NCBI RefSeq assembly: GCF_028641065.1
Contig: NC_073386.1
Location: 47,058,001-47,122,000 of the forward strand
Direction of reading: 5' to 3'
Length of the DNA: 64,000 nt
Source of the DNA: Leucoraja erinacea
Lineage: Eukaryota
The notes under the pieces are model-generated. The model made no database searches. It was not told where the DNA came from and saw only the letters and a program-made list of their open reading frames with translations. Below, one piece after another: positions 7,625-59,962 of this stretch; within the stretch, counting starts at the first letter, position 1; every line of letters begins with the position of its first letter. The position numbers and the translations under genes were made by a program.

Positions 7625-7890
7625 ATTTCTGTCATTATCACCTAGCCCACAGCCAACATTGGACCATTTCCTTGATCATCGTTACTTTTTTGCATAATTT
7701 TCATTCATTCGTTCTATATCTCTTTATATCACCGTCTATATCCCCTGACACTCAGTCAGAAGAAGGGTCTCAATCCAAAACGTCACCTATTCCTTTTCTC
7801 CAGAGATGCCTGCTTGACTCGCTGAGTTACTCCAGCTTGTTGTGTCTATCTTCAGTTTAAACAAGCATCTGTACTTCCTTCCTACACATT
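7625..7890 (+). mobile_element. Penelope-derived tail element
   Basis: CAGTCAGAAGAAGGGTCTCAATCCAAAACGTCACC...TTCCTTCCTACACA; same family as 21142. Confidence 0.75.
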
Positions 7891-10552: not shown

Positions 10553-11465
10553 TGGCGGATTTCCGTCCTTGAAAACTAAGAATGAATCAAATACGATTTA
10601 TCGTTTCAAAATGAGCTTTCATTCCAGATTAATTTAATTTCTTGAATTTAAATTCTTCAGCTGCCATGGCAAGATTCAAACTCGTGAGCCTGCATCAATG
10701 GCCCAACACTCTAATTAGGTTACTGGACAAACAGCCACTATTATATCACATGATCAAATCACTTTTTCTGGAATAGTATTTCTCCTGCTGTGTTGTTGAT
10801 TTAAACTTCACATTTTTGTAAATATTATAAATTAATGGTCTTTTATTGTTTTCAAATATGTTCGTCTTGGAATTGTACTAGTGCATTCAAATCCAAATGT
10901 ATTTTTCAAGTGAAGTGTAGTTCAATCGTTGGGATCATTATAGAGTGCATCAAAGCCCACAGATGTAATTCCATTCCCATTTTAACATGCATTCCAACCT
11001 TAATTATATTCCATTATAAATTCCTGTGCCTACGTCAGTAATGAAAATAGCTTTTGTTAAATAGTTATTGAATAATGACTCCACTCCCACTCTTGGTGAC
11101 ATTGTGAGAAAAGTGGATTTACATTTGGAAAGGAATCGTTTGCAGAGTTTGGAGATAAGAGCAGTAGAATTGGACAGATTAATGATGAATCGGACAGATT
11201 CTCCAAGTGCTGACAGGTGGGTCGCCTAGGCTCAAGTATGATCCTGGAGTACCACTCAAATTTGTATAAAATGATGCAAAAGAGGTTTTCAAAATGTAAT
11301 CATAAATAAATAAATGCCGCTGAATATAAAGGCCAGGTGATTGGATTGCACAGCAGTATTTATTTTTGGCTCGGCACAAATGAAAATAAATTTTGCAATG
11401 TGGTGAAACTTAATACAAACATTTCCAACTTAGAAATTAATTCAAATGACCAAGGCCTTATTATA

Positions 11466-11637
11466 TGTAGGAAGGAACTGCAGATGCTGGTTTAAACTGA
11501 AGATAGACACAAAAAACTGGAGTATATCAGCAGGACAGGCAACATCTCTGGAGAGAAGAAGGGTCTCGACCTGAAATGTCGCCCATTCCTTTCTCGCTGC
11601 CTGTCCCGCTGAGTTACCGCAGCTTTTTGTGTCTATC
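11466..11637. mobile_element. Fold-back (inverted dimer) Penelope-tail element
   Basis: Arms 11502-11541 / 11598-11637 are reverse complements; 15-bp TSD CAAGGC(C/A)TTATTATA. Confidence 0.8.
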
Positions 11638-14283
11638 AAGGCATTATTATAGCTGTGCCAGTCCCAGTGCCTCCTATTCCTTTATATTTTGGTCACGTCC
11701 CCTCCGTCCCCTCCTCCATCTCCCACCCCACATTTGTATCTCTCAGGCCAGGATGGGGGAGAGTAGGTGTGGGATTGTCAGGTTAAATCTACCAGGAAGG
11801 TCAGGGATTGGGACTCTGGTCAATAAAGGAAGGTCTAGGTTGAGTTTAACCATGATCCAGTTGCTGCCTGCGCAGTGTGGCTGCAGATCAAAACAATCAT
11901 CATCGGACACACAATCGTGTACTGCACCTAGTAAGCACACTGCAACTCCTCTAACAGGGTGTTTTGCATGCCTAGAAATTCACCTGTGCTAGCAATCACT
12001 AACCACACAATATAGCAGTGTCTAGGCATTGTGCATTGCCTTAATTCATTCAATGGGTTTCAGCCCTGGCCATTCCTACTATGACCAAGCTGCCTCCATA
12101 GGTACTATCTTGGGGTTGATCCATTGCAATGACTTTCTGTGCAACCTTTCTTGCTTATAAATTAATTATAAATTCTTCTACTTTTCTCGGTATCCTTCCA
12201 TTTATTGTGATCCCCTTATCTAGTTTCCCCCTCCCCAAATGCAAACCTAGCACTTTCAAGACAAGATTTGATTTGCAACATTTTGACTTCCGTATCAGTC
12301 CACTGATACCCTACAACTTTCTGCCTTGCTACCAATCACATAGTCAGTTCAGTATCATCCACAGATTCCCTTATTGTAACTCCATTATAATCAAGTTCAG
12401 TTCATTGATACCCAGCACGAGATCTGAAGAACCAAGCACTGAGCCGTGCAGAATCCCATTGAATACAGTCATGAAAACTTGTGTTTGAACATTACACTTT
12501 GGTTTCTGCCATTTTGTAATTACAGATCTCGTGGCATTTCCTCTGGATCCCATGGCCTTAGACCTTCCTTGGCCATCCATCTTGACAAACGCCTTTGTAA
12601 AATGCAAACGGAGCACATCAAGCACACTATTCTCATTGACCATTATTGTTAGCACTCATGACTAGTTAACCAAGTTTGACAGACACATCCTTAATAAATC
12701 CATGCTGGTCATTGTTGAATAAACTGTAGATTTATGGAAGACAATTCATGCAGTCTCTCCAGAAAGTTTCCAATAATTTGTTCTCTTCCAGTGTTATACT
12801 GAGACGCCTGTAGTTCCTTCTATCCCTTTTTAAGTAGCGATTGAGTTTTTGAGGAGGTGCTTAAAGCAATTGACGAGGTTAGGATGGTGGATTTGTCTAC
12901 ATGGATTTTAGTAAGGCATTTGATAAATTCTCCCATGGTAGGCTGATCCAGAAGATTAAGATGCATGGGATTGACCTTAACACGATCATATGGATACAGA
13001 ACCGGCTTAAGGATAGAAGACGGAGGGTTGTGGTGGAAGGACAATATTTAGGTTGGAGGTTTGTGACCAGTGGAGTTCTGTGCTGGGACCACTGTTGTTC
13101 GTGATGTATATAAATGAATTGGACAAGAACATAGATGGGTTGGTTGGTAATTTGCAGATGACACTAACATTACAGATGGAATTTAATCCAAGCAAGGCTT
13201 AAAAACTTGTGGAAAATATTGACTCCTTTTGAGCAATTGCAGCAATTTGCAAAAGACAACAGCTTGCTTTGCTTCCGTGAGGAAAAGCAGCTGAAAATGC
13301 ATAAATATGTTAAACAGTTTTAAAGCATTTTACGACTCTCTTGTGGCTTGTTCTCTCGTGTCCTCTGGTGGTTCCTGTTGAGAAACAGCTGCTGACCTCC
13401 CCAACTATCAGCCATCATCCTGCAACAGGAACTGCAACGTGATCAGGATGGATGGCCCAGAGGGTAGGGCTGCTTTGTATATAAAAATACACCCATCGTC
13501 TCCTTTAAACTTTGCCCATCGCCCACTTTAAAGCATTACCCCATCCTAGGGTAAAGGTTCTTACTATCAACCCTATCTATGCCTCTCGTAATGTTAAGTG
13601 CTTCTATCAGGTCTTCCCGCAACCTCTGAAGTTCCAGAGTAAACAATCCAAGTCTGTCCAACCTCTCATTGTGCCTAATATCTGCCAAGCCAGGCATCAT
13701 ACTGATAAACATCCTTTGCACCCTTTCCAATGCCTCCATATCCCTCCTGCAATGGGGTACATGCAGTACTCCAAATTCAGCATAACCAAAGGCCTATGAA
13801 GCGCATTATGACTTCCTGCTTCTTATTTCAATGTCCCAGCCTATGAAAGTAAGCTCCTGCCTTCTTGACCACTCTATCTGTCTGTGTTGCCACTTGCAGG
13901 GAGATATGGACTTGGACCCCAAGATCCCTCTGTATATCAATGCTGTTCAGGGTCATGCCATTAATTGTATATTTTCCCCTTACATTCGACGTTCCAATTT
14001 GCAGATTTCACCAACCAATCCATCCAAATAAATAATCTATAGAATTCCTAATTATTTGCTGTACCTGCATGTTAAGTGTTTTTTCAGTGATTCCCAGATC
14101 CATTTGTGCCCCAACACTTTGCAGCCTTGTTGCATGAATATTGCTTTTTCATTCTTCCTTCCAATATTTATGACCTTACATTTTCCCATATGAACCTCCA
14201 CCTCCGAAATTCTTGTCCACTCAGCCAACCGTTCCATATTGCACTGCATGCTCTTCAAGTTCACCTCACGGCATGTTAACCCA

Positions 14284-14381
14284 AGGTAGACAAAAATGCT
14301 GGAGAAACTCAGCGGGTGAGGCAGTATCTATGGAGCGAAGGAATGGGTGACGTTTCGGGTCGAGACCTTCTTCAGACTTCA
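14284..14381 (-). mobile_element. 98-bp Penelope-derived micro-element
   Basis: Perfect 13-bp TSD GCATGTTAACCCA (14271-14283, 14382-14394); hammerhead motif on the minus strand. Confidence 0.85.
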
Positions 14382-15021
14382 GCATGTTAACCCATGTAAC
14401 ATTGCATCATCAGCAAATGTACTCTGTCCCTTCCGTGCACTTTGTCCCTTCACCAAGCCATAAATACAGATTATAGAAAGTGCCCCTTCAGCACTCTTTG
14501 GGACCTCCCCAGTTACTGACTGCCAATCTGAAAATGACCAACTGATACTACTGTTTTCTGATTGTTCACCATTCCACTATCCATGCTAATATGACGGGTG
14601 TCAGGGGTTATGGGGAGAAGGCAGGAGAATGGGGTTAGGAGGGAGGGATGGATCAGCCATGATTGAATGGAAGAGTAGACGTGATGGGCCGAATGGCCTA
14701 ATTCTGCTCCTATCACTTATGATCTTATGACCTAATATTTATTATTCCAGCCCATACATTTTTACCTTGAGGCAGCTTTTCAATTGCCTTCTGGAAATCT
14801 AAACATACCACATATTGTGTTTCCCCTTTGTCCTTCCTATTTGTGGCATCATCAAAGTTATTGATTTTGTTGTTATTAAATGTAATTTCTTTTTTCCATA
14901 AAACCATATTGAATTGCTTAATAATGTAGGCGATGTAAGATGGAGAACATAAAACAGCCCAGTACAGGAACGGCTCTTTTGGCCCACGCTGTCTTTGGTG
15001 AAAATAGTCACGTTAAACTAA

Positions 15022-15160
15022 ATGTGTTGGAAGGAATTGCAGATGCTGCGTTATACCGAAGATAGACGCCAAATGCTGAAGTAATTCAGCGGGTCAGGCA
15101 GCATCTCTGGAGAAAAGGAATAGGTGATGTTTCGGGTGGGAACCCTTCTTCTGATTGAAA
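15022..15160 (-). mobile_element. Penelope-derived micro-element
   Basis: Same tail family, ending at a degenerate hammerhead. Confidence 0.7.
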
Positions 15161-17109
15161 GATAGAGAAGGCCAGAACAAAACTTGCATGTGATCCATAT
15201 CCCTCCATTCCTTGCACATCCATGTGCCTATCTAAGAGACTTAGATGCGTTAGACTATAATATCTGCCTCCACGACCACCCCAGACAGCATGTTCTAGGC
15301 TCCTCCACTCTCTGTCCAAGAAAAGCCTTGCTCCGCTGCCTCTGACCTTAAAGCTATGCCCTCTAATCTTTGCCATTTCCACTCTGGGAGAAAGATTTTG
15401 ACTGTCTACCTTATATATAGCCTCTTATAATTTTATATACATCTATCATGTCTCCTCCCTTCAACCTCCGATGCTCCCGAGAAAAGAATCCCAGTTTGAT
15501 AATCCAAGTTTCTTATAATGTTCTAGATATCTTGCTGTTAACTTTTTAATTATGGATTTAAGCATTTTCCCAGTGACTGAAGTTACAGCTTGCTTCTTGC
15601 TTTCCTTTTTGCTTCTTTCTTGAATATTGGCTTAATTTTTTGGGACTTCCACTTCCTGGAACTATCCAGAATTCAGGGAATTCTGGTAGATTATAGACAA
15701 CGCATTCAGTATCTCTGCAGCCATTTCCTTTAATACCCTCCGATGCACACCATTTGGGTTCAGCAAACTTGTGGCCTTTTGTTTGCATAGCACTTTTACC
15801 TGTTGATAGAGATTATTTAAACACTTCCCTCCCACAGCCCTGCAGTCATAAAACAGCCCCTTTATACCAAGACTCAATCCAGTGAACGTTGGCTGCTCTG
15901 CCTCCCAAGATAAATATAACAAGATATATATAGCCTGTAGTTGTACCAAATTGACACTGGTACAATTAAGCTCATTCCAATTACTGTGGTGATGATATAA
16001 CACCTTTATTTTGTATAAATAATGGTTTAGCTGAGATGTGGAATGTAAATGTTACAGCCCTTTAATTTGAATGTTTGTTAAGCAACTGTTGCTTGAATCT
16101 TCTGACCAAACCAAAAAAGGTTCCCTCTTTTAAGATGATCTCATTTGGAGTTTTTTATTTACAGGCAAAGAGGCTCTGATTGCACTATAGATACATTAAA
16201 TGTCCACCAGTGGGCAATGGAAGGTATCTAGGCTGAAATAGCTGCTTGGAAATTTCAGTAGCTCATACGTTCATAAGTGTATGTGATAGGAGCAGAATTA
16301 AGCCATTTGGCCCATCAAATCTATGCCATTGAATCATGGCTGATCTATCTCTCCCTCCTAACCCCATATACCAGCCTTCTTCCCATAAACCCTGACACCC
16401 ATACTAATCAAGTGGCTGATTGACTAAGAGACCATTCAGACCCCGAGCTTCTGCAAGGTGCAGTCTTAGAATAAAGGGGAGGTCATTTAAGACTGAGGTG
16501 AGAAAAAACTTTTTCACCCAGAGTTTTGAATTTGTGGAATTCCCTGCCACAGAGGGCAGTGAACGCCAAGTCACTGGATGGATTTAAGAGAGAGTTAGAT
16601 CGAGCTCTAGGGGCTAGTGGAGTCAAGGTATACGGGAAGAAAGCAGGCGCGGGTTATTGATAGACGATCAGCCATGATCACAATGAATGACGGTGCTGGC
16701 TCGAAGGGCCGAATGGCCTCCTCCTGCACCTATTTTCTATGTTTCTATGTTCACATGTCCTGTGGACAGCAAACTTTTTCCAGGTGCAGAAAATAGAGCA
16801 GAATGTCCTTGGACTCCAGTCCATTCCTCCATATCAAAGGTGTAACTATGGGAACCTGAGGGCCCAGGCCATGCACGCCTTTTTGTGGGATACATGGAGC
16901 GGTCTGCTTCCGTACTATTGAGCTCTCTCCCCCACCCATTTTTCCAGTACAGTACATCAACAACTGTACTGTTTCCTGCATTTGTACAGGACTAAAATGT
17001 CATCATTTTTGCTCCTAGTCTCCATCCTGCTCCCATTTTCATCTGTCCACCTCTGACTCCTCCCTTCCGTTTCTGTAATCCTGCCTCTGTGATTAATAGA
17101 CATGCATTA

Positions 17110-19255: not shown

Positions 19256-19385
19256 CTATGATATTGGCTTAGAACTACTAGCAAAAATAGTTTCTCACAA
19301 ATTGTTCAATGTGTGATGATCGGCCGTGAACTGCAGTTGAAACAGAACCCAATGAAATCTTCAGAAAGTGGATTAAATCCACTGT

Positions 19386-19560
19386 GTCTGAAAAGGTGTC
19401 TCGACCCGAAACGTCACCTATCAGTCTGAAGAATGGTCTCAACCCGAAAAGTCACCTATTCAGTCATAAGAAGGGCCTCAACCCGAAACGTTACCTATTG
19501 CTTTTCTCCAGAGATGCTTTGACCCGCTGAGTTACTCCAGCTTTTTGTGTCTATCTTCAG
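19386..19560 (+). mobile_element. Penelope-tail element with three tandem hammerhead-like units
   Basis: 38-39 bp period with cores at 19388, 19426 and 19465, then the standard tail. Confidence 0.8.
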
Positions 19561-19924
19561 CACAAATTAAATGGGCCACATGGCCGGTTTTTTGTGCTGC
19601 AATATTCTGTTGCCCTGAATAAACACTCACTGACTCCTGAACACAGAATCCTGGGGCCAAACTCAAGCATTGCATTCCGTCTGTTAAAAGGTGCAGTTGT
19701 TCTTGATTGATCTCAAATCGCACCCTGTAGCCCCTGTTTTCACCGAAACCCTGCACTGTTTGCATGTTCGTGATTAATAAACACCAATCATGTATTCAAC
19801 AATGCAGCATGCCCTCTAGGTGGCACTCTGAACTACACCAGCCACCTCTGACTACAACATTAGTTCCAACACCAGAGCCAATATTTTACTGTTCACTGGA
19901 AGACTAAATAAAGATGTAGTAGTC

Positions 19925-20335
19925 GGCCCCCCTCAGTCATGACTGATCCTGTTCGATGCAAGCCTGGGCGATGTCATATGGAGGACAGGCTGTTGCCCAT
20001 GCAGCACGCCCCACCCTCTCCACGTTGCTGATCGATCCAAAGGAACAGCAGGGCCGTTACAGTTTGACACCAGTGCCGTCGCAGGAGCTGCCAGAGCGAG
20101 GTTGTAGACAACGACGAACTGCCTTAGGGGCTCCGACTCCGGATTTTCTTGAGGTTTACTCCTGGAGCCTTTTCCATGACTGGATATGGCCACAAGGCAG
20201 TGGAGGTTTTAAATCAGAGTTTTCCCTCTCCTAGATGGACTGCCTTCCCATGCTGACGACCCCCATCTGCCCGAGACTCGTGGGGGCGGGAGCGTCTACC
20301 TTCCCGTGCAGGTCTATAGCACCTGCCCACTGCCC
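19925..20335 (-). mobile_element. Probable 5' leader of an RTE-clade-like non-LTR retrotransposon (or derived SINE)
   Basis: GC-rich island. The minus-strand GGCAGTCCATCTAGGAGAGGGAAAACTCTGA motif is recalled from RTE-type 5' UTRs; family not verified. Confidence 0.45.
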
Positions 20336-21141
20336 TCAATTAAAGATGAATACCTCATTTATTATGTGTTCTTGTTGGAGGTGCACAATGTTTATTTTCA
20401 GTTGCTATTTGTATTAACCTGGACTTTAATTCCATTTTATAAGTGCAGTTCTGTGCCAGATTTAGTCTGCACAGCATCCAATTTGCCCAAGGCTAATTCA
20501 CTTTAGGTTATAAATCACCATTGTAACCTTCAAGCAGGAATGTTTAAAATGCTCTTGTGATGTTCCTATCTGTCCTATTTTGATGAAGATTAACTCAATA
20601 ACTTTAAATAGATTGACAGCAACTGGTAAATACTGTACATGAGATCACAGTAAGAACATGTTAAATGTTTGCATATGAAGTCCCCAACTGGTACTTATTA
20701 ATGCCACATCAGTCTTCAGAGCTAAACCTTTGTGTACGATATGGAGAGGAAGTCAATACAATCTGTATATATATCAGTGGAACTGGCGCAAAGCTCCAGC
20801 ATGAGTTCTGCGGAAACCACCAGGGTTAATCATTTAGAGCAGCTTCTGCAGCATCAGACAAACCATTCATAACTTAACATTCTTGGCACTAGGTGTTTCT
20901 TTAGAGAGAGTTTCTACAGTGTCTAATGGATGGATGGGTTTTTGGAGATGGTGATGGGAACAACCTGCTTTATTACAGAGGTGGCTGGAGTTGCTTGGGA
21001 TAGTGTTAAAACCGCCATTGGTACATATGCTGCACATGTGGTCACACATCAGGCCCATTGAAAGCTGGGTTGTAATCGTGCAAGGCAGTGTTTAAGCCAG
21101 CTTCCTGTTTTCTATTCCTAACATATCCAACAGTAATGAGT

Positions 21142-21176
21142 CTGAAGAAGGGTCTCGACCCGAAACGTCACCCATT
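21142..21176 (+). ncRNA. Minimal hammerhead ribozyme motif (Penelope type), best-preserved copy
   Basis: CTGAAGA-A-GGGT(CTCG)ACCC-GAAACGTC: core CUGANGA and GAAA, stem II, palindromic ACGU mini stem III, GUC site. Activity untested. Confidence 0.7.
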
Positions 21177-21274
21177 CTTTCTCTCCAGAGTTGCTGCCTG
21201 TCCCGCTGAGTTACTCCAGCATTTTGTGTCTGCCTTCGATTTAAACCAGCACCTGCAGTTCTTTCTTACATACA
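21142..21274 (+). mobile_element. 133-bp Penelope-derived micro-element
   Basis: Flanked by TAATGAGT direct repeats (21134-21141, 21275-21282). Confidence 0.8.
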
Positions 21275-22039
21275 TAATGAGTTAACCATTGAGAGGCAAT
21301 ATTTCAGCAAACATTAGTCAGAGAACTCATAACAATGAAGCTACACATGTTCAACATGCCAAAGACCAAAACAGTTCCACAGTAGGTAGATGTTCAATAA
21401 CCATGAAAAATGTGTTTATTTTGAGGCATTTTCATTTATTTTGAATTTGTTTCAAGATGATTGAAATGCAGCATACTTTGATTTGTGAGTGGCATAATAA
21501 TAAACAGCGGTGCTATTTCTGGCTCCTTCCACTGCCGTCTCATTGGGATAGTTGTGTAGATGGCAGTCAACTACCAAGCAGTTATATATTTGACAAGAAA
21601 AAGTGAACCACTTACATCACTTCTGCTTTTCGTGTTCATCTTGTTACAAATGTTGACCTCGCTGTCATCGTCCGTCCTGAAAAGGACACAATCAGTGGAA
21701 GCCATCACTTGTTGCAATAGATGATGGTGGTAGCAGAATTAGCTCAAGATACTTCCAGTTTCCAGCCCCGTGACGTGGACGCTTCTGCTACAGAGCCCAC
21801 AAAAGGATAAAGAACCACAACAATTTAAAAGTTACAAACACCAGTTATAGGTTGAAAGCTTATCTTCCATCTATTTAGACCTTCTTCAGTGTCCAATTAA
21901 AAAATACTGTGATATATAGCTTAAATGGTAGTGTGAGCCAATGCTCACTATACAATTCACTTGAGTTTATTTCTCGGAGTTCCAAATAAGCAGCCCGGTT
22001 TGCTCTACCGCCTGAAAACCAATATGAACCCTATACTGT

Positions 22040-22183
22040 GTATGAAGGAACTGCAGATGCTGGTTTAAACCAAAGAAAGACACAAAATGCTGGAGTAACT
22101 CAACGGAACAGGCAGCATTGACCCATTCCTTCTCTCCAGAGGTGCTGCCCGTCCCCCGCTGAGTTACTCCAGCATTTTGTGTT
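22040..22183. mobile_element. Fold-back Penelope-tail element
   Basis: Inverted arms ACACAAAATGCTGGAGTAACTCA / TGAGTTACTCCAGCATTTTGTGT; 17-bp TSD TATGAACCC(T/C)ATACTGT. Confidence 0.85.
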
Positions 22184-22896
22184 TATGAACCCCATACTGT
22201 TCTGTGTCATATGTGCCAGGAATTTCTAAGATTTGCTCTATATTAAATATAAAGGTTGTGAGTCAGAAGATTGGAGAGGGAGAAGAGGGTTGAGGATGGG
22301 GTATGAATAATGATCAGTTGAGATGCTGTAATTATAATTTCTGCTACTCAGTTTGAGTGTGATGCTGCTGAAAAATCTTGCAATAATGTTTAGGCACACG
22401 TATGAAAAGGGGCTCTGAAGCCAACTATTGACAGGCCAGAAGTTGTTGATTAATGACTTTGCAACGTGCAAAAGCCTTTTTATTATCAAAACTCTATCTT
22501 TCTTGGAATGATCATTTTCATAAAAACTGTTCATTTTAGAGAGCCAAATAATTATAAAAAGTACAATATTGACATAATGCAAATTCCATGTAATTGCTAA
22601 TGCTGCCTCTTCACAACTTGAGCACAACATTTCCCAATACCAACCCCTAAAAGGTTACTTGGTTTAAGCTGCTTCAATGGGTCAGGCAGCATCTGTTGAG
22701 GAAAATGGACAGACAGTGTTTTAGGTTTGGAAGCTGTAAAATGTTTTGTGATTTTCTATCGGCAATAGATGCTGTCAAAGAAAAATTAATTCTTCCAGAG
22801 AGTTGTGATTTCTACATGTTATTAACTTGCTGCTGAGTTCCCATACCCATGTTCTATTGTTCCCATACCCAGTGTTCTATTGTATTTGCTTTGCAG

Positions 22897-22977
22897 TTCG
22901 TATCCTGGGGAAGGTGAGCGAAAGTCTGGGGAAAATCTGCTGTGTTCGTCCACATGTTGAACGCTTCACCTTTGTGG
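22897..22977 (+). CDS. NMNAT2: NMNAT2 coding exon (equivalent to exon 6; palmitoylation CC motif)
   Basis: ttgcag| ... G|gtaagt; (V)[26 protein letters not shown]; 81 nt, phase 1/1. Confidence 0.97.
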
Positions 22978-23282
22978 GTAAGTGCGTCATTTATTTTGCG
23001 TAAAAACAGACACCTGATCAGGCAAACATTCCTGGTGCTTGAACATCCAGAATTACTCTAGAGTGAGGGCTGCACCATATTAAATAGCCTTGTTCAAAGC
23101 ATTTCAAAGCTTAAACAGAGAACATTAAACTTGCCCACAATTAGGCATTTAAAATGACAAAAACATAATTGTATTTTCAAATTTTGAAATTTGGTTTTTG
23201 GCTGGGGACCATTTCCAATATCAAGAAATTGTTCCTGAGTCAGAAGTACAAAGGTCATATTACTGATCTGTGCAGATGGGCA

Positions 23283-23630
23283 CACATGGAACTACAGATG
23301 CAACATTCTTGAGCAAAACACAAAGTACTGGAGTAACTCAGCAATCCAGGCAGCATCTATGGAGATGCTGGAAGATCGAAGGTACACAGAAATGCTGGAG
23401 AAACTCAGCGGGTGCAGCAGCATCGATGGAGCGAAGGAAATAGGCTGCACCCGCTGAGTTTCTCCAGCAGTTGTGTGTACCTAGCATCTATGGAGGAACT
23501 GGATTGGAGATGTTTTGGATTGCGACCCTTCTTCAATGTCTGAAGAAGGGTCTTGTCCTGAAACATCACTTATCCCTTCCTTCCAGAGATGCTGCCCGAC
23601 CTGCTGAGTTAATCCAGCACTTGTGTTTGG
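23283..23630. mobile_element. Nested fold-back Penelope-tail elements
   Basis: Inner hairpin at 23380-23482 inside an older outer fold-back copy. Confidence 0.75.
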
Positions 23631-23959
23631 TATAGATAGACAGATGAGTTGTAGATAATAACACAAAACATAATAAGAAGCATTGGTTAAATGTTTTACG
23701 GGAGCTCCAAGCTCATTAGAAATCCAACTTGAAAAGCGATTCATAATGTACTGCCTAATGTGTATGTGTTTTCAGTTGGCTTCTGAGATTTTGTTGCACG
23801 TGAAGTCTTGTGGTTATGGTTAAAGTGTGTTGGTTTAATGTTTCCATAGAAAAATCGGTTGGATTCATGAAGGGTAGTTGGCCATGTAAAATGTTGAAGT
23901 AAATTCTGGCATAACACAAATATTCACCACACAAATATTCATAACGAATAAAATATTCA

Positions 23960-24570
23960 TAACTCCCCCCTCGACTCCATTCAAGGATCCACTCAGCCGT
24001 TCCAGGTGTGACAGAGGTTCACCTGCACCTCCTCCAACCTCATCTATTGCATCTGCTGCTCTCGATGTCAGCTGATCTACATCGGTGACACCAAGCGCAG
24101 GCTTGGCGATCATTTCGCCGAACACCTGCGCTCGGTCCACAATAGCCTACCTGATCTCTCGGTGGCTCAGCACTTCAACTCCCCCTCCCATCCCAGACCT
24201 TTCTGTCCTGGGCCTCCTCCATGGCCAAAGTGAGCACCACCAGAAATTGGAGGAGCAGCACCTCATATTTCACTTGGGCAGTTTATATCCCAGCGGCATG
24301 AACATTGACTTCTCCAATTTCCGGTAACCCTTATTGTCCTCCCCTTCTCAGCTCTCCCTCAGCCCTCTGGCTCCTCCTCTTCCTTTCTTCTTCCCGCCCC
24401 CTACTCTACACCAGTCTGAAGAAGGGTTTCAGCCCGAAACGTTGCCTATTACGCCCCCCTACCCTACATCAGTCTGAAGAAGGGTTTTGGCCAGAAACGT
24501 TGCCTATTTCCCTCGCTCCATAGATGCTGCCACACCCGCTGAGTTTCTCCAGCACTTTTGTCTACCTATT
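23960..24570 (+). mobile_element. Penelope-like element 3' fragment (GIY-YIG endonuclease remnant + hammerhead-bearing tail)
   Basis: FTCTSSNLIYCI.CSRCQLIYIGDTKRRLGDHFAEHLRS; tail CTGAAGAAGGG..CCCGAAACGT. Confidence 0.88.
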
Positions 24571-25589
24571 CATAACCTCCTCCTGGTTCACTGATAATTT
24601 GCCATTGTTTTTATAGTTCTCCAAGTCTGCCACACCCTACCCAACTCAGCCAAATGGTTCCTTTACCCTCAAGCCATGTCTCACTTTATTTACCATTGTT
24701 AGATCAACAATCAATCAGAATTAAACCAAAATGAACATCCGGAACAGAGAGAGAGAAAGCTGTAACATTGCATAATGTTCTGACTAATATAAGAAACACA
24801 TCCTCTGACTCACTGAACAATTCCACTGAGACTTGCAACATATTCAGTGCATTTTCCACATATAACAGGAAATGTTGTGTGCAGCCGATTTGCTAAACGA
24901 TTGCCATGGAGATGATTCCATGATATAAAAGGAGGCAATTCAACGTACGGACAGAGGCCAGCTAAAGGACTGACAATGAGCCTCAGAAAAATGCTGTTGG
25001 CCTTTTGATTAAAACTTTTACCAAAATCCAAGCATTTGGCTAATCCACAAACACGCACTGATTCCTTGTGCAATAGTCGCCAAATCTAATTGTTTCCTAC
25101 ATTCTGCAGTCCCAAAAAGCATTTCCACATCATTTATTACACAAAGGAAAGCCTGTGTTTTTTGTTTGCTGTCTAATATGATACTGCAAGTACTGCGTTA
25201 ATCTACATTACCCTTAAGCAGCCGTGTTATTGGAACTCCCGCTCACCAAAGCATCCTGAAAAACATATTTTGATACCATATATCTCTGGATATATTCAAG
25301 TTTTATAACACAGGCCTTGTGATCCTTTTCAATGTATTAGAATTTATACCACACTTCAGAGAATGTCACAATGGTATATTAACAAATTAAGGGTCAAATT
25401 CTGGCAGTCCGACAATAAGACTTTAAACTTTTTACAAATATGTTCCAGTTTCCAGCATCCTGAATAAATGTTGGGAAGCTGCAAGCAATCTTCCCATGGA
25501 AAGACAAGACAAACATCTGTTTCAGGTTTACCAAGCGCAACTGCCCGAAGAAAGCTGAAGAGCAGTCTTAACATAACCCGCTGTGGACC

Positions 25590-48184: not shown

Positions 48185-48522
48185 GATAGACACAAAATGC
48201 TGGAGTAACTCAGCGGGACAGGCAACGTCTCTGGAGAGAAGGAATGGCTAACGTTTCGGGTCGAGACCCTTCTCCAGACTGTGAGTCAGGGGAAAGCGAA
48301 ACGAGAGATATAGACGGTGATATAGAGAGATATAGAACAAATTAGTGAAATATATGCAAAATGTACCAATGATAACAGAAACAGGCCATTGTTAACTGTT
48401 TGCTTTGTCATCGTTACTATTTTGCATCTTTTATTCATTTGTTCTATATCTCTCTACATCACCGTATATATCTTTTGTTTCCCTTTCCCCTGACTCCAGT
48501 CTAAAGAAGAGTCTTGACTCGA
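48185..48522. mobile_element. Fold-back Penelope-tail element (long arms)
   Basis: 48255-48375 and 48405-48522 are reverse complements. Confidence 0.75.
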
Positions 48523-56063: not shown

Positions 56064-56306
56064 TGTGTAGGAAGGAACTGCAGATGCTGGTTTAAACCGA
56101 AGATAGACACAAAAAGCTGGAGTAACAGTGGGATCGGCAGCATCTCTGGAAAGAAGGAATGGGTGACGTTTCAGGTCACAATTCTTCTTCAGACTGAAGA
56201 AGTCTGAAGTCTGAAGAAGGGTCTCGACCCAAAACGTCACCAATTCCTTCTCTCCAGAGATGCTGCCTCTCCGGCTGAGTTACTCCACCTTTTTGTGTCT
56301 ATCTTT
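56064..56306. mobile_element. Fold-back Penelope-tail element with opposed hammerhead motifs
   Basis: Inverted arms around ...TTCTTCAGACTGAAGAAGTCTGAAGTCTGAAGAAGGG...; flanking GG(C/T)TGTATAGCAGG duplication. Confidence 0.85.
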
Positions 56307-58672: not shown

Positions 58673-58881
58673 TAGGAAAGAACAGTAGATGCTGGTTTAA
58701 ATTGAAGATAGACACAAAATGCTGGAGTAACTCAGTGGGACAGGCAGCATCTCTGTAGAGAAGAAATGGGTGAAGTTTCGGGTCGAGTCTGAAGAAGGGC
58801 CTGGACCCGAAACGTCACCCATTCCTTCTCCCCAAAGATGCTGCCTGTCCTGCTGAGTTGCTCCAGCATTTTGTGTCTCTC
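58673..58881. mobile_element. Fold-back Penelope-tail element
   Basis: Inverted arms joined at the hammerhead; TSD TTTGTATAAAT (58659-58669, 58882-58892). Confidence 0.85.
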
Positions 58882-59299: not shown

Positions 59300-59962
59300 C
59301 CTCCGTAACTCCCTGGTCAATTCGTTCCTTCCCACCCAAACCACCTCCTCCCCTGGTATTTTCCCTTGCAACCGCAGGAAATGCTACACTTGTCCTCCCC
59401 CCTCGATTCCATCCAAGGACCTAAACAATCTTTCCAGGTGAGGCAGAGGTTCACCTGCACCTCCTCCAACCTCATCTATTGCATCCGCTGTTCTAGGTGT
59501 CAACTGCTCTACATTGGTGAGACAAAGCGCAGGCTTGGCGATCGCTTTGCCCAACACCTCCGCTCAGTTCACATTAACCAACCTGATCTCCCAGTGGTTC
59601 AGCACTTCAACTCCCCCTCCCATTCTGAATCTTACCTTTCTGTCCTGGGCCTCCTCCACGGCCAGAGTGAGTCCCACCGCAAACTGGAGGAGCAGCACCT
59701 CATATTTTGCTTGGGTAGTTTACAGCCCAGTGGTATGAACATTGACTTCTCCAATTCCTTGCTTTCTCCCTCCTCCCCCTCCCCTTCCCAGCTCTCCCAC
59801 AGCCTACTGTCTCCGCTTCCTCCTGTCTTCTTCCCACCCCCCCCCCCCCCCCCAGCCCCACATCAGTCTGAAGAAGGGCCTCAACCCGAAGCATCACCTA
59901 CTCCTTCGCTCCATAGATGCTGCCTCACCCGCTGAGTTTCTCCAGCATTTTTGTCTACCTCC
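59300..59962 (+). mobile_element. Penelope-like element 3' fragment (GIY-YIG)
   Basis: ORF 59366-59935: FTCTSSNLIYCIRCSRCQLLYIGETKRRLGDRFAQHLRS...RKLEEQHLIFCLGSLQPSGMNIDF. Confidence 0.9.

Follow-up and report, generated by a model that had tools for sequence, protein, structure and literature searches.

The insert at positions 21134 to 21282 of the window (the whole stretch of 64,000 nucleotides of Leucoraja erinacea DNA analyzed here) is, on the sequence features tested, the solo end repeat (pLTR plus tail) of an EN+ Penelope-like element (PLE) of the Neptune/Nematis type. Copies of its family have 5' ends that pile up at the front edge of a minimal hammerhead core. We consider it somewhat more probable than an even chance that such a stub is the run-off product of a reverse transcriptase (RT) primed at ~+94 or ~+131 on uncut RNA starting near the core. 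Here and below, plus and minus positions are counted from the C of CUGA, with 0 at window position 21142. The insert comprises the following features:

21134-21141, plus strand: left target-site duplication, TAATGAGT, the last 3 nt of which are also element letters -3 to -1 (microhomology)
21139-21274, plus strand: solo pLTR and tail stub of a Neptune-type PLE, long-tail form (~-3 to +132)
21142-21169, plus strand: minimal type I hammerhead core (pattern as in PMC4209133), predicted cut at 21169/21170
21170-21176, plus strand: stem I 3' strand, forming 6/7 pairs with 21135-21141 in this copy only, where an alternative hairpin is predicted to be preferred
21236-21274, plus strand: optional tail between the two family 3' ends (~+94 and ~+131)
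21275-21282, plus strand: right target-site duplication

The insert is 136 letters long and is flanked by an 8-bp direct repeat, with TAATGAGT present at 21134-41 and again at 21275-82. Both this duplication and the hammerhead core lie where the earlier note had placed them. The AGT that ends the left duplication equals the element's own upstream letters (A, G, and T occur in 41/44, 34/44, and 34/44 long copies, respectively), and the left junction is therefore read as microhomology. The assignment as solo pLTR plus tail is based on the parent anatomy recovered by walking upstream and on the closest relatives of this copy, at least 7 of 29 of which carry GIY-YIG sequence just 5' of the core. 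These 29 best matches and a random sample covered the copy's own subfamily, while 5' ends at base resolution come from a young sister subfamily. Three other organisms have contigs that run into the insert from both flanks, which makes it older than their split; an empty-site allele was not seen in three related organisms.

The core consists of CUGAAGA, an extra A, a 4-bp stem II with a CUCG loop, GAAA, ACGU, and a GUC triplet (as DNA, CTGAAGA-A-GGGT(CTCG)ACCC-GAAAC-GTC), with the palindromic ACGU standing in place of stem III. Minimal type I hammerheads sit in the pLTRs of metazoan PLEs (Cervera and De la Pena 2014, PMC4209133), and the skate motif shares with them the extra nucleotide before stem II, the G-C closing pair, and the palindromic 15.2-16.2. 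Stem II has 4 bp here versus 7 to 8 bp in the Schistosoma families described there, and stem I is poorer. Native stem I amounts to 2 bp plus an internal loop, mostly with 3 to 4 Watson-Crick pairs of 7 (119/141 long copies), and core and stems are kept in 26/108 random copies aligned from +0. The earlier note had proposed that upstream host bases complete stem I in the 21142 copy. The 6/7 pairing holds, but only 4 of the 7 bases are truly host, since AGT belongs to the element. As a family trait, host completion was rejected, as it occurs at 6/7 in 1/100 short copies, by chance.

Folding predictions gave -6.7 kcal/mol for the hammerhead versus -13.9 kcal/mol for a hairpin that buries the core, placing the hammerhead fold 6 to 7 kcal/mol above the predicted minimum. 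For five pieces, the folding z-scores (-0.95 to 1.06) did not stand out. The covariance-model check called for earlier was carried out with Rfam, which gave no match at gathering score across the whole window and, in 19300-24700 at E values up to 10, only hairpin look-alikes and no hammerhead. Differences between subfamilies in stem II and the triplet were not counted as covariation because they can be read as CpG decay. In the assays of PMC4209133, monomers were inactive and dimers weak. The hammerhead in the lone intronic copy is predicted to be weak or inactive.

Thirty segments of the family are present in the window, among them the following:

11464-11634: head-to-head pair
14283-14376, minus strand: simple core-start copy with short tail, 12-bp duplication, and a few extra letters at the 5' junction
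15021-15183, minus strand: older-subfamily copy reaching ~30 nt upstream of the core
19386-19560, plus strand: three head-to-tail cores (~38-nt units), partly broken, followed by a short tail; starts at the core
22039-22182: head-to-head pair with the joint downstream of the core
23960-24567, plus strand: 5'-truncated copy with frameshifted GIY-YIG remnant, pyrimidine tract, duplicated core, and short tail
56066-56300: head-to-head pair joined at the core
58673-58878: head-to-head pair joined at the core, with one long-tail and one short-tail arm
59300-59960, plus strand: 5'-truncated copy with Cys-rich linker, GIY-YIG (59399-59755), pyrimidine tract, core, and short tail

The claim of more than 15 copies of the core motif in the window thus applies to family segments but not to the motif itself: the 28-nt motif has a single exact match, in the 21142 copy, and the core with its stem II pattern is intact in only two copies (21142 and 24416), the majority being decayed. 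Sixteen segments reach the core, of which 9 have upstream homology, 4 are head-to-head arms, and 3 are simple core-starts (14375, 19388, and 21142). Three further copies had been described as starting near the core. This is correct for those at 14284 (14283-14376, core-start at 14375) and 19386 (core-start at 19388), but the copy at 15022 shares 30 nt upstream of the core with another locus and is not core-starting. The tail shared with the GIY-YIG remnants at ~23960 and ~59300 was confirmed. It is not, as had been supposed, a fixed sequence of ~100 nt; copies end at either ~+94 or ~+131, which defines an optional tail of 30 to 40 bp. Tandems in the family take the form of 36- to 38-nt core-only units (window 19386-19500) and also of ~91-nt units running from core to short end; their joints return to -3 to -1, as if RT, on reaching the RNA 5' end, switched templates.

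Family abundance was gauged from 80 evenly chosen 10-kb stretches (800 kb), in which 323 of 327 segments were kept, the other 4 having fewer than 30 aligned nt. Counts of simple copies are given as 194 or as 186, the latter leaving out 7 edge copies and differing by one further copy classed differently between scripts. Extrapolation from 800 kb to 2.19 Gb gives ~880,000 segments, or ~700,000 insertions. A head-to-head partner accompanies 118/323 segments and a tandem neighbor 12/323, and ~10% of copies reach the open reading frame (ORF).

For the parent element, a first full-length search (20 loci) returned 5'-truncated copies only. In 15 of the 20 the core follows the ORF end, with GIY-YIG ~100 to 130 nt before it. 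The young subfamily supplied a natural unit of 3,726 bp from core to core, in the order core and tail, ATG at +164, RT, Cys linker, GIY-YIG, stop, pyrimidine tract, and next core. Core and tail continue straight into the ORF 5' end there, which is the arrangement of a partial-tandem pLTR; in the subfamily of the 21142 copy itself, only the 3' link to GIY-YIG was found. A single 782-codon frame matches RVT_1 (E 1.4e-6) and GIY-YIG (E 5e-4), both just below cut-off, and Pfam GIY-YIG scores above cut-off for window 59399-59755. Between RT and endonuclease, the translations contain a Cys-rich linker, CNRRKCYTC. Such a linker is common to Neptune and Nematis (PMC8557442), so the clade name Neptune is provisional and refers to features rather than to an RT tree. 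A Penelope origin of the family copies and their mobilization by Penelope RT, as the earlier note had it, are supported. Separately, contig C11:2267500-2277400 contains a tandem of almost two complete 3.7-kb units, one of which is open over 967 codons and shows a frame change upstream.

To resolve 5' ends, the young subfamily was sampled with an exact 72-nt pattern from +8, which has 10,450 matches genome-wide, and 91 copies were taken in order along contig C1; starts downstream of +8 are invisible to this pattern. Sixty of the 91 copies start at -7 to +8, 2 at -8 to -68, and 29 further upstream. The mode is -2, with a hard upstream edge near -7 and a spread of ~15 nt rather than a single base. 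The clustering at the ribozyme core that had been reported from a handful of window copies is therefore a sharp peak, and a smooth 5'-truncation distribution, which would have contradicted it, was not seen. Copies carry duplications of 9 to 18 bp. Among the first 77 young copies, a duplication of at least 9 nt adjoins 22/33 non-inverted core-starts, and in the random sample 11/21 duplications of at least 10 nt sit at -10 to +9 (versus ~0.1 with swapped flanks). In the random 800 kb, 65/186 simple copies end at the core, a figure that is somewhat too high because upstream homology is harder to detect in old subfamilies. A minor peak at +40/41 (13/194) arises, at least in part, from the way older subfamilies align. 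The cut site, +28, is not a peak (1/194 simple copies and 1/39 ORF-bearing copies start there); the single ORF-bearing copy that begins exactly at this predicted site lies on contig C12 near 56128400.

Copies that contain the ORF 5' end behave differently. Of 39 such copies, 24 extend as far as the upstream core, where 4 end and beyond which 20 continue. The stopping rate of 4/24 compares with 52/77 for tail-ended young copies (p 1.4e-5); the 24 are the top-scoring matches from a single subfamily, and processive events may be overrepresented among them.

In three RNA runs, neither read starts nor read ends accumulate at the core or the cut site, the libraries being poorly suited to reveal such a pile-up. 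A cap-derived extra G was not significant (10/23, p 0.09; 6/16, p 0.25). Single-cell RNA (run X23) has 1,290 loose read ends at window 21177. Presumably, this pile reflects the library adapter annealing inside the element, an artifact that could mimic antisense starts; given its adapter-like loose ends, it was not accepted as an RNA end. In all long copies, a pyrimidine tract and CAG directly 5' of the core resemble a splice acceptor, and a second acceptor-like tract ends near +46 (window 21170-21188). Splicing as the source of the 5' ends was rejected because the duplications abut the core without an upstream exon and many copies keep letters -5 to -2.

The 3' ends are informative in head-to-head pairs. 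Random pairs combine a long-tail arm with a short-tail arm in 38/50 cases versus 24.7 expected (p 1.2e-4; 9/59 pairs with a broken arm were left out), and young pairs do so in 17/18. The arms of a pair disagree at 1/37 polymorphic-site comparisons versus a background of 0.39, in a test biased toward concordance because 9/27 rows were left out (8 partners with at least 12 mismatches and 1 tandem); with the 9 dropped rows kept, the count is 9/52. Since arm alleles match, one template molecule seems to serve both arms of a pair; the matching also fits fold-back copying or gene conversion. Inverted short pairs are for the most part asymmetric, with one arm extending to -7 to +8 and the other ending anywhere, and as this second arm has no fixed stop, the 5' limit is not merely one of palindrome annealing. 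Head-to-tail joints in contigs of three other organisms run from the short 3' end back to -2/-1.

We propose that Penelope RT primes inside uncut RNA at ~+94 and/or ~+131 and may then run off the RNA 5' end near -3, a few bases before the hammerhead core, which would leave a solo stub. Because core and tail run on into the ORF, an RNA starting at the core has both priming sites in its first 95 to 135 nt. The 5' edge would mark a transcription start at TCAGTCT; these edge letters fit the vertebrate initiator consensus. Both ends of a cut target may prime on one RNA, one per site, and so yield head-to-head long and short arms. Long partial-tandem copies would derive mostly from a second pool of longer templates (read-through, multimeric, or circular), two pools being required by the contrast between 4/24 and 52/77. 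The hammerhead would be a passenger in this scheme. In retroviruses, priming near the RNA 5' end produces minus-strand strong-stop DNA, a short run-off cDNA. The likeness is one of analogy only, as the primer here would be target DNA and the run-off product would thus be integrated. The present counts are not accommodated by a uniform jump model: with one jump rate, the simplest strong-stop-and-jump scheme was rejected, as 20/24 would need far more pass-through than the 25/77 seen. The stop-rate contrast thereby limits simple jump models.

Support for two internal priming sites comes from the anole Poseidon element PAc in vitro (Frangieh et al. 2024, PMC11167929), where two adjacent sites bound the tail, both target strands are cut and extended, and uncut RNA is used. 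Hammerhead cleavage is dispensable in that system, and RNA-seq ends are not found at the cut site. PAc belongs to the Poseidon clade and its ORF starts inside the hammerhead, whereas that of the skate element starts at +164; run-off stubs and pairs of long and short arms do not figure in the available account of PMC11167929. Several points count against run-off: a start of the RNA was not seen, the cap-derived G fell short of significance, the 5' ends are spread over ~15 nt, and only 4/24 ORF-bearing copies stop at the core. In addition, the start in Drosophila virilis Penelope is 46 nt upstream of an intron (PMC2377424), and this intron has its 3' end at helix I (PMC4209133), which puts that start well upstream of the core. 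The fuller claim that the ~700,000 stubs record insertion events, each with one uncut RNA primed twice at the sites that bound the tail and both cDNAs running off its 5' end, is tentative and falls a little short of an even chance. If true, it would give a single origin to solo pLTRs, the one-sided tail, and head-to-head inversions; stubs would show where transcription of vertebrate Neptune-type elements begins; and full copies would need a second pool of templates longer than the unit.

Alternatively, truncation on long templates might be determined by sequence or structure, with RT stalling, or cDNA being joined, at the front edge of the core. Candidate causes are the TCAG-T-CTGA palindrome, the weak stem I, and a C-rich tract starting just upstream. 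In the young subfamily, the upstream edge at -7 coincides with the end of that tract; the palindrome pairs between two molecules in cofolding and is the center of some head-to-head joints, and palindromes at inverted junctions, together with self-priming, were proposed in PMC3846280. Three long young head-to-head pairs on contig C1 all join at -261 to -304, in the endonuclease region, where a near-palindrome (read by eye) surrounds the joints. However, a sequence block should act on both classes of copies, yet 20/24 ORF-bearing copies pass the very sequence at which 52/77 tail-ended copies stop (p 1.4e-5). Most inverted short pairs are asymmetric, and the predicted stable hairpin at ~+2 to +40 would be met by RT near +40, not at -3. 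We therefore disfavor the ribozyme-structure-determined truncation raised in the earlier note and regard this class of explanation as unlikely.

A lower probability still, a small one, is given to the idea that solo stubs have a transcription start of their own and that the Penelope enzyme copies their RNA again in trans, in a SINE-like manner with many sources and without a separate lineage. The presumed start and the two priming sites are retained in every stub, trans-mobilization in a rotifer requires nothing beyond pLTRs (PMC3846280), and the short-template pool required by the 4/24 result would be supplied. Stub sequence is also abundant in RNA reads, but 63 to 94% of these reads continue into unlike sequence, as host transcripts should. 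Nor was a short-only clade or allele found, within the limits of a low-resolution tree and a pattern blind inside its 72 nt. Short copies are interspersed with long ones in a tree built from 99 random copies (32 changes versus 31.4 shuffled), a weak test of a short-only lineage because it has few columns and no starred branch. None of 112 tests found an allele that separates short from long copies (minimum p 0.02), so the diagnostic subfamily mutations sought in short copies were not observed. The variants at +80, +84, and +91 occur in young short copies as well as in young long ones, in a sample blind to variation inside the 72 nt of its exact pattern, and each resolved subfamily makes both short and long copies. 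SINE-like features are thus confined to discrete ends with target-site duplications; mutations of their own, absent from autonomous copies, were not detected at the low resolution of the test, and the discrete retrozyme-like SINE suggested earlier is not borne out.

A classical non-LTR retrozyme, with hammerhead-cut, circularized units and rolling-circle reverse transcription, is very improbable: small core tandems exist (19388-19500; 12/323 segments), retrozymes derive from pLTRs (bioRxiv 10.64898/2026.07.22.740005), and one locus has nearly two full 3.7-kb units in tandem, but boundaries lie at -3 and +94/+131 rather than cut to cut, copies are mostly single or head to head, and the motif is minimal, with mostly 3 to 4 of 7 native stem I pairs Watson-Crick (119/141 long copies) and a hammerhead fold 6 to 7 kcal/mol above the predicted minimum. 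Like animal non-LTR retrozymes (PMC7229834; bioRxiv 10.64898/2026.07.22.740005), which are presumed to use the PLE enzyme, the skate stubs are non-coding, carry a type I hammerhead, and are related to pLTRs, and "monomer" retrozyme copies are recognized in the latter source. Retrozymes are tandem repeats with a complete hammerhead per unit and a circular RNA, whereas the skate stubs are dispersed and their ends are unrelated to the cut site. Membership was rejected on the counts of tandem segments (12/323) and of simple copies starting at +28 (1/194).

The repeat itself is ordinary, since the element type, minimal hammerhead, solo and inverted pLTRs, and tail are already in print. The motifs of PMC4209133 are likewise mostly single and dispersed, are ascribed to truncated PLEs, and include opposite-strand pairs; they number 2,000 to 9,000 copies, compared with several hundred thousand here. 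The available part of that study reports no 5'-end peak, and one of its supplement files contains no shark or skate term. With EN+ Neptune/Nematis elements (Craig et al. 2021, PMC8557442; Arkhipova et al. 2013, PMC3846280), the skate element shares RT, Cys-rich linker, and C-terminal GIY-YIG as well as partial tandems, 5' truncation, solo pLTRs, head-to-head inverted pLTRs, and a 30- to 40-bp tail at one end. Unlike the elements as described there, solo stubs dominate in the skate and have a sharp common 5' edge. Those accounts ascribe the tail to endonuclease resolution and the inversions to self-priming; double priming on one RNA fits the present data at least as well. In the literature searched (without Dfam, Repbase, and most subscription journals), we found no report of the 5' peak or of long and short arms paired with matched alleles. 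The added value lies in the statistics of copy ends, by which an ordinary element offers an unusually clear record of mechanism. The PLE questions touched are how end repeats are rebuilt, how the one-sided tail arises, and what role the hammerhead plays, for which one in vitro system exists so far. With ~10,000 near-identical young copies, the predictions are sharp: transcription should start at ~-3, a single RNA should be primed twice, and templates should come from two pools.

The 21142 copy lies in the sense orientation within an intron of the following gene, between its first two exons (~6150 and ~22900):

6148-39260, plus strand: host NMNAT-family gene, with exons at approximately 6150, 22900, 29830, 36090, 37000, 37890, and 39210

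The short exons were located by motif and PDB match; a Pfam family search missed them. The sense placement in NMNAT-family pre-mRNA agrees with the earlier note, while the name NMNAT2 used there is a provisional one based on motifs. Within the window, the nearest intact sense core is 3.3 kb from the 21142 copy. The predicted hammerhead might cleave the host pre-mRNA, although this is unlikely; for the host gene, the copy is probably without effect, being common to related organisms and showing no sign of cleavage. Sense intronic copies could, with their acceptor-like tracts, serve as cryptic splice acceptors. Some 350 nt downstream of the insert, 21628-21815 is another very high-copy repeat, judged from high contig depth. 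On the minus strand, 21732-21809 gives a weak CPEB3/HDV-like ribozyme match (19.9 bits, E 0.1; gathering score 35). Elsewhere in the window, 23300-23630 is a compound insertion in which several inverted tail pieces form a long perfect hairpin (23393-23469), and the segments at 7680-7756 and 48278-48400 represent a subfamily with a different T/C-rich upstream region, ~120 to 300 nt of which is common to other loci.
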